From Candidatus Acidiferrales bacterium (lineage in GTDB: Bacteria; Acidobacteriota; Terriglobia; Acidiferrales; UBA7541), in NCBI GenBank assembly GCA_030037355.1, contig JASHRL010000231.1, positions 1 to 45,816 on the forward strand: a DNA stretch of 45,816 bases, read 5' to 3'. The notes under the pieces were generated by a model. The model did no database searches and was not told the origin of the DNA. It saw nothing but the letters and a program-made list of their open reading frames with translations. Below, one piece after another: positions 7,763-13,540 of this stretch. Made by a program: the position numbers and the translations under genes. The stretch's first letter is position 1; each line of letters starts with the position of its first letter.

Positions 7763-9403
7763 TTAATTTTGCGGTTCTTGAGCGAAACGCCGGAAGAAGC
7801 TTGCCGGCTCCCACGCTGGCCGCGCCGCATCGTCTGCGACGCGGTCCGCCAGCAGATATAGCAAGTGGCAGAACTTCCCCGCCGCTTCCTGGTCCACCTT
7901 CTGGTTCGTATCGTCGGAGGGCTGATGATAATGCGTGTGAACCCAATCGTTGAAAATCTTCTCTTGTGGTGAGCCTTTTGCGTATCCGAACTTGAACGCC
8001 AGCGCCGGAATTCCTCTCTGAATGAAACTGTATTGATCGCTGCGAATGAACCGGTTGGCCTCCGGCTGTTCGTCCTCAATCACATCCACGCCATCTTCTT
8101 TGCCCGCCGCGCGAATATCGTCGCCGAGCGTGGATTCATCGAGCCCTTGCACCTGAAGATACTGCAGCGGGAAAAGAGGCAAAAACATATCCATATTGAT
8201 GTCTGCCACAATGTCTTTTGCTGGCATAGTGGGATGATTCGCGAAATACCACGAGCCCAGTTCGCCTTCTTCTTCGCCGCAGACAGCGAGGAACAGGATC
8301 GACCGCTTCGGCTTCGTGCCCGATTCCTTGAAATCGTTCGCGATTTGGATCAGCGCGGCGACGCCAGCGGCGTTGTCCATCGCGCCGTTGTAAATGTCAT
8401 CACCATTCACCGGTGCGCCCACGCCCAAATGGTCCAAATGCGCGCTCACGATGACGTATTCTTTTTTCAACACGGGATCGGAACCCTGCAACACGCCTGC
8501 CACGTTCGGCGACTCGACCGGCTTCTTGATCAGCGCGATTGTGGCTCGAATCTCTCCCTGCAACGGAAACTTTGGCAGCGGCTGGTGCGCTTTCGCCAGC
8601 TCCAAAATTTCCGCCATCGCGTGGCCCGAACCCGCGAAAAACTCATCCGCGTCGTCCGGATTGATCGTCATTTCGATTTGTATGCCTTGATCGCGGCGAA
8701 GCTTCGCGTCCGCGAGCTCCAATGACACCACCTGCCTGTTTGCCGCGATTCGGTTCCATGCAATCTCCTGCTCCGCCGGATTTGGAATCACAGCAATCCC
8801 TATTGCGCCCGCAGCCTTCAGCGCCTTCCATCGCTCTCCGAGCGATTCTTCATGCGCACGCAACGGATCCTTGATGGTCGAGGGCCCGCCCGTTAGATAC
8901 ACGGCGATTTTCCCTTTCAAGTCCAGCCCCTCAAGGTCGTCGTAATTCGCTTCCGGCACTTTCATCCCGTATCCGACGAATACCATTCCAGCATTAAGCT
9001 CGGGGGCTGGGTCGCCTCCTGCCCGCAGAATCACCTGATTCCCCAGTGTAAATTGCGTTGGCGTCGAATCTCGAATCAACTCGACCGAGGAATGTCCTTC
9101 ATCGATTTGCCTCGACTCGAACTGCACGGATTGGAAATATCCGACCGTCCCCGCGTCCTTGAGTCCCTCCGCATAGAATTTGTCCGCTACGTACCCAGCG
9201 GCATCCTGGTACTCCGCGCTTCCCGTTTCGCGGCCTTTCATATCATCGGACGCCAAATATTTCACATCGCTCCACCAGCGATTTCCTTCCGCTTTATCAT
9301 CACTGGAGGTCCTCGCCGCCGTAGCGCCGAGCAGGCACACGGCTAACGTTAGAAACGCTGCAATCCATGAATAAGTCGAAACTCGCAGCAATCTATCTCT
9401 CAT
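7763..9403 (-). CDS. M28-family aminopeptidase with PA domain
   Basis: Zn-ligand motifs SAHLDHLG, GAMDNAAGVA and CGEEEGELGS. The N-terminal signal is MRDRLLRVSTYSWIAAFLTLAVCLLG when started at ATG 9403. The track start at 9433 would overlap the upstream gene. Confidence 0.85.
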   Translation of the reverse strand: MRDRLLRVSTYSWIAAFLTLAVCLLGATAARTSSDDKAEGNRWWSDVKYLASDDMKGRETGSAEYQDAAGYVADKFYAEGLKDAGTVGYFQSVQFESRQIDEGHSSVELIRDSTPTQFTLGNQVILRAGGDPAPELNAGMVFVGYGMKVPEANYDDLEGLDLKGKIAVYLTGGPSTIKDPLRAHEESLGERWKALKAAGAIGIAVIPNPAEQEIAWNRIAANRQVVSLELADAKLRRDQGIQIEMTINPDDADEFFAGSGHAMAEILELAKAHQPLPKFPLQGEIRATIALIKKPVESPNVAGVLQGSDPVLKKEYVIVSAHLDHLGVGAPVNGDDIYNGAMDNAAGVAALIQIANDFKESGTKPKRSILFLAVCGEEEGELGSWYFANHPTMPAKDIVADINMDMFLPLFPLQYLQVQGLDESTLGDDIRAAGKEDGVDVIEDEQPEANRFIRSDQYSFIQRGIPALAFKFGYAKGSPQEKIFNDWVHTHYHQPSDDTNQKVDQEAAGKFCHLLYLLADRVADDAARPAWEPASFFRRFAQEPQN

Positions 9404-9413
9404 GCTATGGCCC

Positions 9414-9827
9414 TCAACGAAATCGTTTCGCATGTTCTTTCAGGATGCAAAGATCCATCACTACAAAAATTCCCGCCTCACGTGCACGTTTCGCCGCTTC
9501 TTCATTCACCACGCCTTCCTGCATCCAGACGCATTTTGCGCCAATCTTAATCGCACTTTCCACGACCTCCGGCACAAACTCCGGCCGCCGGAATACATCT
9601 ACGATGTCGACTTTCTCCCGGATGTCTTCGAGCCGGCTCACAGCTCTCTCTCCGAGTACTTCCTTCTCATTCGGATTCACGGGAATAATCTTGTATCCCG
9701 CGCCCTGCATATATTCAGAGACGCCGTAGCTTGGCCGCATTTTCTGCGAGGAAAGCCCGACGACGGCAATCGTCCGGCTCGTTTCCAGCAACTGCCCTAT
9801 CTGGTCTTTCTTGGTCTCAGTCGGCAT
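9414..9827 (-). CDS. CoA-binding domain protein (YccU-like)
   Basis: 137 aa. The motif IAVVGLSSQKMRPSYGVSEYMQGAGYKIIPVNP is the characteristic CoA_binding_2 N-terminus. Confidence 0.85.
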   Translation of the reverse strand: MPTETKKDQIGQLLETSRTIAVVGLSSQKMRPSYGVSEYMQGAGYKIIPVNPNEKEVLGERAVSRLEDIREKVDIVDVFRRPEFVPEVVESAIKIGAKCVWMQEGVVNEEAAKRAREAGIFVVMDLCILKEHAKRFR

Positions 9828-9881
9828 TCGCGCGCTTTTCTGTCACATCAATTCTCACGCTCTGAGCAGCAAAGCGAAATC

Positions 9882-11000
9882 CTATCCTGTGCCGCGCTCT
9901 GCGGGTGCGCGCACATCGCTCAAGACGCGCAGGAACTTTTCGTTCTCTTCTTCCGTCCCGACGCTCACGCGAACGGCGTTCGGAAATCCCATCCATGCCA
10001 TTGGCCTCACAATCACCCCCAGCTTGAGCATCTCTTGCGCCAGCGCATCGCCATCGCCGCCGACTTCCACGAGAATGAAATTCGCCACGGACGGCACGAA
10101 CTTCACTCCGAGCGCGCGCATCCCGCTCTCCAGTTGCGTCAGTCCTTGCCGGTTCGCCTCGAGCGACTTCCTCACGTGCTCCGCATCGTCGAGCGCCGCC
10201 AGCGCCGCGGCTTGCGCCACTCCCGACACCGGAAACGGCAAACGTATCTTATCGATTTCGTGCAAGAGCGCCGTGGGACCGATCCCATACCCAACGCGCA
10301 AACCTGCCAGCCCGTACACCTTGGAAAACGTTCTCAGCACCAGAATATTCCTGCCGGCACGCACCACATCCAACGACCGCGAATAATTCGGCATCGAAAC
10401 GTATTCGTAATATGCCTCGTCCAGCACCACCAGAATTCCCTCGGGCACCTGCGCGAAAAATTCCTCGAACGCATTCGCGTTGAACACCGTCCCCGTCGGA
10501 TTATTCGGATTCGCAACGTAAATCACTTTCGTTTCTGGCTCGATGGCGCGCAGAATCGCATTCAGATCGAATCCATATTCTCTCAGCGGCACGAGAATGA
10601 GCTTCGCTCCCATCTTTTCGATCGCGATATAATAGAGCGGAAACGATCCTTCCGACGTCACCGCGCTTTCGCCGGGCCCCAGCAGCGCCGACGCTGCCAG
10701 ATGAATCAAATCCGTCGAGCCGCTTCCGATGATGATGTTCTCCTGCGGCACGTCCAGGCGCTTCGCCAGCGCCTCGCGCAAGTAGTAGCTTCCGCCGTCG
10801 GGATACCGATGCGCCTCGCTGAACGCCTTCTTCGCCGCCGCGACGCCCATCGGCGACGGCCCCAGCGGATTCTCATTCGACGCGAGCTTCACCGCGCGCA
10901 TTCCCAATTCGCGCTCGACTTCCTCGATCGGTTTGCCGGGAATGTAAGGATCAATTTCTCGGATGTACTGCGGTATGCCGTTGTGCGGGGCGTTTTTCAT
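9882..11000 (-). CDS. hisC: histidinol-phosphate aminotransferase
   Basis: 372 aa. Has LASNENPLGPSP, NPNNPTG and the PLP-lysine motif RTFSKVYGLAGLRVGY. Confidence 0.9.
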   Translation of the reverse strand: MKNAPHNGIPQYIREIDPYIPGKPIEEVERELGMRAVKLASNENPLGPSPMGVAAAKKAFSEAHRYPDGGSYYLREALAKRLDVPQENIIIGSGSTDLIHLAASALLGPGESAVTSEGSFPLYYIAIEKMGAKLILVPLREYGFDLNAILRAIEPETKVIYVANPNNPTGTVFNANAFEEFFAQVPEGILVVLDEAYYEYVSMPNYSRSLDVVRAGRNILVLRTFSKVYGLAGLRVGYGIGPTALLHEIDKIRLPFPVSGVAQAAALAALDDAEHVRKSLEANRQGLTQLESGMRALGVKFVPSVANFILVEVGGDGDALAQEMLKLGVIVRPMAWMGFPNAVRVSVGTEEENEKFLRVLSDVRAPAERGTG

Positions 11001-11008
11001 TTCAAATG

Positions 11009-11827
11009 TTAGCGTCTCGGAAATCGTTCTTTTGCCGGCTCGCTTCGCTTTCGCGCGTAAAAACTCCGCGGTTTGACCCTCACCGCGCCACGTCGCGCAC
11101 CCTCGGTTCCCTTTGGTGCCTCCGCGTGGCGCTCCGCTCTGGCCAGCGCGCGCTCGAGCTCGCTCACTTCTTCGTTCGTCAAATGCCTGTATTGCCCGGG
11201 CGCGAGCGGCCCCATTTCCAGATATCCAATGGCCACGCGCTTCATCTTATCGACCGGATGCCCGCTTGCCATCAGCGCCTGCCGGAATTGGTCTTTCGTC
11301 GCCCCTGAAAGCGTCACCTGCCACCATCCGCCCGCCAATCCTTTTGCGCGCTCCATTTTCGCATGCCCTGCTCGCTCCGCATCGCGAATCTCGGATTCGC
11401 TTGGCATGCCGGAAGTCTTGCAGAGATAAATCTGTGGCAGCGCATGCGCACGCATCGCGCGATTCGCCAGCTCGCCGTCATTCGTCAGCAGCAGCAATCC
11501 CGACGCGTGATATTCCAGCCTCCCGACAGGGAAAACTCGTCCCGGCACTCCGCGCACAAAATCCGCAATCGTTCGCCGGCCTTCCGGATCGCGCATCGTC
11601 GCCACCACACCATCTGGCTTGTTCAGCGCGATATAGACTTTCGTTCCTGTCAGTCGCAGCAGTTTGCCTGCAACGCGAATGTGATCCCTCGCCGCGTCCG
11701 CTTTCGTGCCCAGTTCGGTCACCACGCGCCCATTCACGGCCACTTGTCCCGACGAAATCAGCGCTTCCGCATTTCGTCGCGAAGCGATTCCCGCCCGCGC
11801 AATAATTTTCTGCAGTCGCTCTTCCAT
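11009..11827 (-). CDS. RsuA/RluB-family pseudouridine synthase homologue with a divergent active site
   Basis: N-terminal S4 domain (RLQKIIARAGIASRRNAEALISSGQVAVNG). Core motif PVGRLEYHASGLLLLTNDGELANR, where the family consensus is GRLD. Basic C-terminal tail. Sits in the conserved scpA-scpB-rluB position. Confidence 0.82.
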   Translation of the reverse strand: MEERLQKIIARAGIASRRNAEALISSGQVAVNGRVVTELGTKADAARDHIRVAGKLLRLTGTKVYIALNKPDGVVATMRDPEGRRTIADFVRGVPGRVFPVGRLEYHASGLLLLTNDGELANRAMRAHALPQIYLCKTSGMPSESEIRDAERAGHAKMERAKGLAGGWWQVTLSGATKDQFRQALMASGHPVDKMKRVAIGYLEMGPLAPGQYRHLTNEEVSELERALARAERHAEAPKGTEGARRGAVRVKPRSFYARKRSEPAKERFPRR

Positions 11828-11859: not shown

Positions 11860-12597
11860 TTACGCGCCTGCTGCCTTGCTTTGACCTTCGCTATCCAGCA
11901 AGTCTTGCTCCGTAGATAAATTTTCCTGTGGCGCAATCTGTGTCGCACTGCCTTCCGCGGTACCAACTTCGGTTATCGATTTCACAGATGCCGCCATCTC
12001 TTCGCCGTCGCTCTGAACCGCTTCCTCCGGCTCCGTCGGCGCAATTCCTTCGTCCGCGCCCAGCGCTGCCTGCGCCAGTTGCTCAAATTCCTTCAGGCTC
12101 GGCAGCTCATCCAAATCCGCGAGTCCAAAGCGCATCAGGAAATCCTTCGACGTGCGGTACAGAATCGGCCGCCCCACCGCATCCTTGCGTCCCGCCGTTG
12201 TAATCAGCCGGCGTTCGAGCAGCGTTTTCACCACGCCGCCGCAATTCACGCCGCGAATTTCGTTGATTTCCGGCAGCGTAGCCGGCTGCTTGTACGCGAT
12301 CACCGAAAGCGTTTCAAGCGCGGGAATCGTCAATCGCAGCGGCGGCCGCAGTCCCTTGATAAACCTCCGCACCGCATCGTGATGCTGCGCTTTCGTATAC
12401 ATCTTCCAGCCGCCCGCCACTTTGCGAATCTCGATGCCACGCTCATCCGCGGCGTACGACGCGACGAGCCTGTCCAGCGCCGCGCGTACTTCCGCCTTCT
12501 CTCCGCCTATCGCCGCGACAATTTGCTCCAGCGTCGCCGGCTCGTCCGCCGCGTAGATAATCGCTTCCAACGCGCTTTGCAGTTCCTGTTCGGTCAT
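11860..12597 (-). CDS. scpB: SMC-ScpA-ScpB condensin subunit ScpB
   Basis: LEAIIYAADEPATLEQI..., ETLSVIAYKQPATLPEINEIRGV and GRPILYRTSKDFLMRFGL are typical ScpB winged-helix segments. ATG 12597 (MTEQEL) is preferred over the track start 12657, which would run through a GC palindrome. Confidence 0.85.
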   Translation of the reverse strand: MTEQELQSALEAIIYAADEPATLEQIVAAIGGEKAEVRAALDRLVASYAADERGIEIRKVAGGWKMYTKAQHHDAVRRFIKGLRPPLRLTIPALETLSVIAYKQPATLPEINEIRGVNCGGVVKTLLERRLITTAGRKDAVGRPILYRTSKDFLMRFGLADLDELPSLKEFEQLAQAALGADEGIAPTEPEEAVQSDGEEMAASVKSITEVGTAEGSATQIAPQENLSTEQDLLDSEGQSKAAGA

Positions 12598-12617
12598 GAC
12601 TGATTCGCCTTCAGGGG

Positions 12618-12655
12618 GTCGGAGCCTGCCTGCGCAGGCAGGCTTAAGCTCCGAC
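12618..12655. repeat. GC-rich nested palindrome (REP-like) between scpA and scpB
   Basis: GTCGGAGC (12618-12625) pairs with GCTCCGAC (12648-12655). Inside lies a perfect 20-nt palindrome, GCCTGCCTGC|GCAGGCAGGC (12624-12643). Confidence 0.6.
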
Positions 12656-12751
12656 AAAACAGCGCCCCTAGGTTATTTTCCTTTCGCGCGCTTCATCCGC
12701 GCGATGTATTCGTTTCCCCAACCCAGAATTGTTCTCCACTTGGTATCTTTT

Positions 12752-13540
12752 TCACAAATACTCTTCGTCAATCTTTGCGATCGCCTCGCCGCCTTCGAAC
12801 ACCACATCGAACAACTTGTGCTTCCGCAGCATCACGTCGCCGAACATTTTCTCCTGCACCAGCGCCACCGCTTGCAGCCTCACCATTTCGAGTACCGCCA
12901 GCAGCGCCACAATCATCGCACGCCGCGACGGGCAAGCCTCGAAAAACTCCGTCAGCGACACTGCTTCGTCATTCGTCAGCAGCCGCGCGCGCAATTGCTC
13001 CATCATCTGCGCCACGGTCACGACTTCATGCGTCAGCTCGACTTTTGCGACTTCCCGCCGCCGTTCGAGCACCTGCTGAAACACTTTCACCAGGTCCACG
13101 AGCGAAACAACCAGTTCGCCTTCCGTCTCCTCGCCTTCGTAAAGCGAAAGATCCGGATGCGACCACACATGCGCCTCGAGCTGCTGCTTTTCGTAAAGCA
13201 TCTGCGCCGCATTCTTGAATTTCTCGTGCTCCAGCAGACGATGAACCAATTCCTCGCGCGGGTCGCCCTGCTCCTCCGGCGGCGCCAGCGGATCCACAGG
13301 CAGGAGCATCTTCGACTTGATATGAATCAGAGTCGCCGCCATGTAAAGAAAATCCGCGGAAATATCCACATTCAGTTTTTCCAGCTGATGCAGGTAATCG
13401 AGATACTGCTTCGTGATTTTCGCGATGGGAATATTGTGGATGTCGATTTCCTGCTTGCGCACCAAATCCAGCAGCAAATCGAGCGGCCCTTCATAGACCG
13501 GCAACTGAATTCTGTAATCGGGTTGTGCGTTCGCCGCCAT
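12752..13540 (-). CDS. scpA: segregation and condensation protein A
   Basis: 262 aa. The N-terminal LPVYEGPLDLLLDLVRKQEIDIHNIPIAKIT is the ScpA signature. Lies directly upstream of scpB on the same strand. Confidence 0.9.
   Translation of the reverse strand: MAANAQPDYRIQLPVYEGPLDLLLDLVRKQEIDIHNIPIAKITKQYLDYLHQLEKLNVDISADFLYMAATLIHIKSKMLLPVDPLAPPEEQGDPREELVHRLLEHEKFKNAAQMLYEKQQLEAHVWSHPDLSLYEGEETEGELVVSLVDLVKVFQQVLERRREVAKVELTHEVVTVAQMMEQLRARLLTNDEAVSLTEFFEACPSRRAMIVALLAVLEMVRLQAVALVQEKMFGDVMLRKHKLFDVVFEGGEAIAKIDEEYL

Follow-up and report, generated by a model that had tools for sequence, protein, structure and literature searches.

A probable rRNA-binding pseudoenzyme at the rluB locus of the Acidiferrales: repeated loss of the catalytic aspartate in a conserved RluB lineage

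Introduction

Do the pseudouridine synthases of ribosomal RNA matter for the pseudouridine that they introduce, or for their binding to rRNA during ribosome assembly? This is an old open question, which has so far been approached in bacteria mainly by means of engineered catalytic mutants. The locus described here raises it in a natural form. A window of 45,816 nucleotides from a Candidatus Acidiferrales bacterium (the whole stretch of DNA that was analysed; contig JASHRL010000231.1) carries, in the place where rluB is expected, a gene for a protein of 272 amino acids, in which the catalytic aspartate of the pseudouridine synthases is replaced by glutamate. A preliminary description, made from the sequence alone, had suggested that this gene may encode an RNA-binding protein that is catalytically dead or altered. 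The analysis presented here addresses the residues of the cleft, their distribution among relatives, the selection acting on the gene, the predicted fold of the protein and the presumed target, and weighs the readings that these permit.

Gene, domains and genomic context

The open reading frame at 11009..11827 (minus strand) consists of 272 codons and a TAA stop at 11009-11011, and its description as an RluB-derived gene draws on the translation, Pfam matches to S4 and PseudoU_synth_2, sequence matches to RluF and RluB and an AlphaFold2 model. The N-terminal S4 RNA-binding domain (residues 3-43; 11699..11821, minus strand) scores 46.1 bits with PF01479 against a cut-off of 22.8 and holds Arg17, the counterpart in the alignment of the Arg17 by which E. 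coli RluB anchors RNA (PMC3919597). It is followed by an ex-catalytic domain (residues 61-232; 11132..11647, minus strand), for which a partial PF00849 match, the structure match and dN/dS together indicate a synthase fold that is kept around a remodelled cleft; the PF00849 (PseudoU_synth_2) match, 40.1 bits against a cut-off of 26.8, spans residues 65-148 and covers only positions 2-93 of the 152 in the profile. The basic C-terminal tail (residues 233-272; 11012..11131, minus strand) is predicted to be disordered (pLDDT below 50 at residues 237-269) and varies in length and sequence among orthologues. Both the intact S4 domain and the basic tail given in the preliminary description are thus recovered. 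Among solved structures, the sequence is matched best by RluF and RluB of E. coli (E of about 2e-26, HMMER). Scores against the RluB equivalog model NF007976 of NCBIfam (98.2 against a cut-off of 290) and the subfamily model TIGR00093 (83.3 against 109.3) fall below their thresholds.

The neighbourhood is that of a canonical rluB. Upstream, scpB (11860..12657, minus strand; PF04079, 171 bits) is separated by 32 nt from the start codon of the RluB-like gene and is itself preceded by scpA (12752..13540, minus strand; PF02616, 116 bits), which bears out the scpA-scpB-rluB slot proposed earlier. Downstream, a class I/II aminotransferase gene, taken as hisC (9882..11000, minus strand; PF00155, 206 bits), begins 8 nt past the stop codon. 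In Terriglobales, Bryobacterales, Blastocatellia and other Terriglobia families, it is canonical GRLD proteins that are encoded in this scpA-scpB-X slot, and hisC often comes next; both synteny and tree placement assign the gene described here to the RluB orthologous group. On the opposite strand, an open frame of 536 amino acids (9402-11012, plus strand) runs antisense to the whole hisC-like gene; it is Arg/His-rich and of low complexity, and looks like a by-product of base composition.

Residues of the catalytic cleft

The motif II region of the 272-aa protein reads FPVGRLEYHASGLLLLTNDG, and the segment downstream of motif II reads ANRAMRAHALPQIY. The aspartate expected in motif II (GRLD) is absent, and its position, aligned by HMMER with Asp107 of RluF and Asp110 of RluB, is held by Glu105 (codon GAA at 11513..11515, minus strand). 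Arg103 (11519..11521, minus strand), which aligns in the same way with the intercalating, base-flipping Arg108 of RluB, is kept. In the K-x-Y motif, Gln132 (11432..11434, minus strand) stands in place of Lys/Arg, a clade-defining change, and Tyr134 (11426..11428, minus strand; HMMER alignment) preserves the conserved motif IIa tyrosine, Tyr140 in RluB. The motif III segment runs S174-G-A-T-K-D-Q-F-R-Q183, so that neither the canonical Lys/Arg of motif IIa nor the canonical motif III string E-G-R-N-R-Q-I-R-R is found in this protein. The Glu-bearing motif II string, its GAA codon, this motif III segment and the segment at the L(M)HP position, as the preliminary description had read them, are all present in the translation of the open reading frame. 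Its remark that the region between the motifs looked shortened also holds: Tyr134 to Trp168 comprises 34 residues, against mostly 42-49 in 118 canonical representatives.

Two residues of motif III need to be told apart. Asp179 (11291..11293, minus strand), a newly conserved acidic residue, corresponds by residue counting on the alignments to Arg194 of RluB and Arg187 of RluF, whereas Arg182 (11282..11284, minus strand) aligns with RluF Arg190 and thereby retains the conserved catalytic basic residue of motif III (R190 in RluF, R181 in TruB). RluF R190 has been named as the catalytic arginine (PMC3973310). By this count, the residue replaced by Asp179 is not the catalytic arginine of motif III.

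Structural and mutational work on related enzymes gives these residues their meaning. In RluB, Arg17 acts as an RNA anchor and the motif II arginine dislodges the target base and flips it out; in RluA, changing that arginine yields inactive variants (PMC3919597). The RluB variant Y140F keeps about 3% of the activity, which makes the tyrosine important and not essential (PMC3919597). When the catalytic arginine of TruB is altered, even conservatively, the rate falls 2500-fold or more and binding is kept (PMC3973310); since so slight a change is so costly, the active sites of pseudouridine synthases are finely tuned.

Glutamate at the catalytic position is genus-wide

The gene was found in 30 of 41 related genomes, and the source names of the relatives are Candidatus Acidiferrales/Acidoferrales (Acidobacteriota). 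Within the same GTDB genus, GRLE is present in each of the 19 full-length copies, its glutamate encoded by GAA in 14 and by GAG in five; the sister family of the same order carries GRLP and, in one case, GRLS (codons CCG, CCC and TCC). Among the best 120 metagenomic clusters (53-95% identity), 115 fit the motif pattern, every one of them with Glu, and three others read GGLE. Because Glu105 recurs in all 19 genus genomes, with both codons, and in 115 metagenomic clusters, it is no sequencing artefact; a sequencing error or a private mutation is rejected by the genus-wide glutamate with its GAA and GAG codons. As synonymous codons vary both within the genus and within the sister family, the residues at the catalytic position are real and maintained. 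The departure from aspartate that the preliminary description had noticed in one genome therefore extends beyond it, with Glu throughout the genus, Pro or Ser in the sister family and Asp in some members of the wider clade.

One unpublished genome (G001, locus L006) is among the 19 of the genus and enters some of the dN/dS pairs given below, and two others (G031, G129) enter tallies only. Conclusions rest on unpublished genomes alone in a single case, namely that the genus g16 is of the Glu type (G112 and G137; loci L127 and L126).

A remodelled clade nested among canonical RluBs

The wider sample was drawn as one representative per 50%-identity cluster from about 15 billion proteins, of which the best 150 by score were retained and joined by several loci and clusters already obtained. 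In the resulting 171 aligned rows, the catalytic position holds Asp in 130, Glu in 26, Pro in 14 and Ser in one. Trees were quick maximum-likelihood searches with SH-aLRT support only, from which the catalytic column was excluded. All sequences without the aspartate, together with some that bear it, form one clade (SH-aLRT 99), which is nested among canonical RluBs from other families of the Terriglobia and from other Acidobacteriota and sits on a long stem branch (0.26-0.34 changes per column).

The clade (n=52) differs from the canonical sequences (n=118) in a set of cleft positions. At position 105, it has Glu in 26, Pro in 13, Asp in 12 and Ser in one, against Asp in all 118 canonical sequences; at position 132, the basic residue of K-x-Y, Gln in 51 and His in one, against Lys in 110 and Arg in eight. 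The glycine of E-G-R-N (position 176), invariant in the canonical set (118 of 118), survives in three clade members and is mostly Ala, Pro, Ser or Val in the rest. Position 179, that of RluB Arg194, is Asp in 48, Glu in three and Asn in one, against Arg in 84, His in 15, Asn in 12 and Gln in five of the canonical sequences. Asp179 and Gln132 are thus newly conserved across the clade. Motifs IIa and III also lie closer together, separated by 34-41 residues in the clade and mostly by 42-49 in the canonical group.

Residues that contact RNA or assist in catalysis have largely been retained: Arg17 in 51/52 clade members (118/118 canonical), Arg103 in 51/52 and Arg182 in 46/52. The Tyr134 position is Tyr in 43, Trp in six and Phe in three, against Tyr in 118/118 canonical sequences, and the flipping arginine is also gone in a few members, which read GGLE, GNLE, GSLD or GNLD. 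The tree requires at least seven switches between Asp and non-Asp at the catalytic position, six of them forced by well-supported branches. Within the GTDB family of the present genome, the remodelled type occurs with Asp in four other genera and with Glu in three, among them g16.

The C-terminal part is far longer in many members of the clade (P0123-P0131, P0136, P0141), where extensions bring the total to 410-630 amino acids, against 272 here.

Selection and predicted fold

The gene is under purifying selection and its predicted fold is intact. Across 161 pairs within the genus, the median pairwise dN/dS is 0.14 and the maximum 0.27; in the 25 closest pairs, values for the ex-catalytic part range from 0.01 to 0.21 and are as low as those for the S4 part. 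Of the 19 genus genomes, 18 have an uninterrupted reading frame and the remaining one a TGA towards the end of the match, and protein identity across the two families is 45-80%. The aspartate is therefore absent from a protein that is nonetheless conserved under selection, the pattern by which pseudoenzymes of the RPUSD3 kind are recognised. The AlphaFold2 model has a mean pLDDT of 84.9, with only the basic tail disordered. Over model residues 1-230, it superposes on the RNA complexes of RluF (3dh3; Z 21.4) and RluB (4lgt; Z 21.0) with an rmsd of about 2.4 A over about 228 residues, and it matches RluE at Z 19-20 and RsuA at 19, which places it within the synthase fold.

Other copies, deletions and a tandem pair

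A search with PF00849 and with a canonical RluB query found no second canonical rluB in the present assembly, which is 95% complete; the one further RsuA-family gene is a member of a different group, and the possibility of a back-up copy raised by the preliminary description was in this way followed to a negative result. The genome has just two other PF00849 genes, one RluD-like (contig C152) and the other a canonical RsuA-family gene (C171:5547-6260 of contig C171; L002:1363-2130). The latter encodes 255 amino acids with GRLDKASEG and EGKNRQIRR, passes TIGR00093 with 149 bits and scores alike, at about 93-101 bits, with the models of RsuA, RluB, RluF and RluE. In other Terriglobia families, members of its orthologous group (SH-aLRT 100) occur together with canonical RluB. 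As a search of 24 genus genomes recovered genes of this type from only nine, the remodelled protein is the sole RsuA-family member in most genomes of the genus.

The RluB-like gene has been cleanly excised, leaving hisC directly behind scpB, in four genomes of the order (G025, L120:1504-3334; G026, L121:1444-3435; G040, L122:362-2100; G032, L123:427-2190). They are 78-100% complete (three of them at least 95%), and their only PF00849 match is an RluD-like gene. Given this clean deletion, the RluB-like gene is dispensable in these four genomes.

One genome of the same family (G131) carries both forms in tandem after scpA-scpB (contig C1, about 1933815-1935335): a remodelled GNLE copy with the glutamine and a degenerate motif III (L152:2315-3070) and, about 30 nt later, a canonical rluB (L152:3100-3834) with GRLD, PKTY and EGRNRQIRR, which groups with the RluBs of Terriglobales (SH-aLRT 95-98). 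Since this canonical copy is not the sister of the remodelled clade and is absent from the other sampled genomes of the order, its placement suggests a later re-acquisition as more parsimonious than an ancient tandem duplication. The retention of both copies also suggests that the remodelled one is not redundant with a real RluB.

The presumed target

The present assembly contains no 23S rRNA. In the 23S rRNA of five relatives (four from the same genus and one from the sister family), U2604 and U2605 (E. coli numbering) and the helix-93 sequence are unchanged, and the idea that a mutated target uridine had made the enzyme useless is thereby rejected. As to a role beyond modification, E. coli RluB has been found on stalled pre-50S particles (PDB 9cl9; PMC11912913), and inactive variants of RlmB and RlmKL still aid 50S assembly in E. 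coli (PMC11194073). Wild-type RluB gave no growth rescue of an E. coli strain devoid of ten modification enzymes (PMC11194073), for which reason an assembly role for RluB itself is not established.

A probable non-catalytic descendant of RluB

The gene descends from RluB, has lost the aspartate within a remodelled cleft, and is maintained by purifying selection with an intact predicted fold. Taken with the Pro and Ser forms of the sister family and with the search that found no second RluB-lineage gene in the genome, these results support the early proposal of an RNA-binding, catalytically dead or altered protein in the RluB slot. We would put at about 0.7 the probability that the gene encodes a non-catalytic, rRNA-binding descendant of RluB, that is, a pseudoenzyme. 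The protein probably lacks synthase activity, and there is a modest preference for 23S rRNA or pre-50S particles as the place where it acts. The kept RNA-contact residues and the precedents above make docking on 23S rRNA, at its helix-93 stem-loop, or on the pre-50S particle, as a non-catalytic helper (a chaperone or a placeholder) the most likely form of that function.

The simplest history has two stages. In the ancestor of the Acidiferrales/Acidoferrales order, RluB of the scpA-scpB-rluB-hisC operon would have had its cleft remodelled in a single episode at the root of the clade: Lys/Arg became Gln132, Asp179 took the place of RluB Arg194, the EG glycine was lost and the hairpin was shortened. 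The catalytic aspartate would then no longer have been required, and it was replaced repeatedly, becoming Glu in the present genus and Pro or Ser in the sister family; some genera kept it. The S4 domain with its anchoring Arg17 is preserved, as are the intercalating Arg103 and the fold as a whole. The protein most likely still docks on helix 93 or on the pre-50S particle, where it would aid as a binder rather than by making pseudouridine.

The conservation of the altered residues adds a nuance to this scheme. Glu105 (within the genus), Gln132 and Asp179 are each strongly conserved, a pattern that looks like a new constraint rather than simple decay and could point to altered chemistry or a new ligand. 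That the remodelled cleft forms a new site with a distinct, selectable activity on RNA, whether a changed specificity in binding a flipped base or new chemistry, is a minority prospect that deserves some weight; if the cleft were such a site, a distinct activity would account for the retention in G131 of the remodelled copy beside a canonical rluB.

Alternative explanations

A function unrelated to helix 93 of 23S rRNA, in which the less basic cleft binds another RNA or ligand (for example, a regulatory or stable RNA), seems to us rather unlikely. It would suit the conservation of the clade-defining residues themselves (Gln in 51/52, Asp in 48/52) and the length of the stem branch of the clade, and the tandem pair of G131 would then suggest different jobs for its two members; nevertheless, the S4 domain, Arg17 and Arg103, by which helix 93 is read in RluB, are kept, the operon position is unchanged, and nothing within the window indicates another partner.

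We regard it as improbable that the protein is still a pseudouridine synthase, with Glu105 as nucleophile or base, or with Asp179 in the role of the catalytic aspartate. Such activity would fit with the invariance of Glu105 in the genus and in the 115 metagenomic clusters, with the presence of Asp179 in 48/52 clade members irrespective of the residue at 105, with the retention of Arg103, Tyr134 and Arg182 and with the unchanged target uridines; as judged by secondary structure, Asp179 also begins the motif III helix of the model, three positions ahead of Arg182, and may be near the cleft. Close relatives within the clade, however, have Pro or Ser at position 105, neither of which can act as aspartate does, and others are devoid of the flipping arginine or of the tyrosine; on these grounds, catalysis is not a constraint on the clade taken together. 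In addition, two positively charged cleft residues (K/R132 and the RluB-R194 position) have been replaced throughout the clade. In TruA, the change D60E is reportedly inactivating; a literature search for Asp-to-Glu mutants of pseudouridine synthases returned nothing. The 2500-fold fall in rate on a conservative change of the catalytic arginine of TruB (PMC3973310) also speaks against this reading.

The reading as a decaying gene or incipient pseudogene, or of the glutamate as an assembly error, could point to the deletion of the gene in four genomes of the order and to NCBIfam scores far under the cut-offs (98 against 290 for RluB, 83 against 109 for TIGR00093), but it is already contradicted by a frame that is intact in 18/19 genus genomes, a median dN/dS of 0.14, 45-80% identity across two families, the use of both synonymous Glu codons and a confident fold prediction.

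Comparison with known systems

The protein remains close to E. coli RluB (PDB 4lab, 4lgt, 9cl9), the pseudouridine-2605 synthase, with which it shares the S4 domain and the RsuA-type fold (Z 21.0, rmsd 2.4 A over 229 residues) and equivalents of Arg17, Arg108, Tyr140 and the motif III arginine. With RluB and its canonical Acidobacteriota orthologues, it further shares the slot after scpA-scpB and a basic C-terminal tail, and it is nested in the RluB group. It differs from RluB in Glu for Asp110, Gln for the K/R of K-x-Y, Asp at the Arg194 position and Ala for the EG glycine, in a hairpin between motifs IIa and III that is about 8-15 residues shorter and in a score far under the RluB equivalog cut-off. 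The best single match is E. coli RluF (PDB 3dh3, 2gml; E 2.1e-26, Z 21.4, 33% identity), the pseudouridine-2604 synthase, which binds the same helix-93 stem-loop as RluB. Nevertheless, RluF has the catalytic Asp107 and a second-shell acidic Asp109 where the present protein has Glu105 and His107, and both synteny and the tree place the gene outside the RluF lineage.

Among synthase-fold proteins that have been repurposed, the nearest parallels act in mitochondrial ribosome or RNA biogenesis: human RPUSD3, with Gly at the position of the catalytic aspartate (PMC12710931), and kinetoplastid mt-LAF3, in which that aspartate is dispensable (D211A; bioRxiv 10.1101/2023.02.23.529727). Both are eukaryotic organellar proteins of the RluA family, whereas the present case is bacterial, belongs to the RsuA/RluB lineage, lies at the ancestral rluB locus and offers a graded series within one order (Asp kept, Glu, Pro or Ser, gene deleted). 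This kind of pseudoenzyme is thus already known from mitochondria, and its bacterial RluB-lineage form is new; the literature searched gave no description of a bacterial pseudouridine-synthase pseudoenzyme. By analogy, the selected function may be binding rather than chemistry, as for the E. coli variants RlmB E198A and RlmL N309A and the tRNA chaperone TruB (PMC11194073). The RlmB and RlmL variants are engineered mutants of active enzymes, whereas here the catalytic residue was removed by nature and the protein kept.

The order thereby provides a natural experiment on the question posed at the outset, in which an RluB orthologue has lost its aspartate several times and is still under purifying selection. 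Forms with Asp, Glu, Pro and Ser, deletions and one canonical copy that was probably regained are available within it as a natural set of variants for the study of non-catalytic function. In public annotation, relatives of the protein are named '23S rRNA pseudouridine2605 synthase' (JGI) or 'S4 domain-containing protein' and 'pseudouridine synthase' (NCBI), of which the first, an automatic name, probably overstates the activity.
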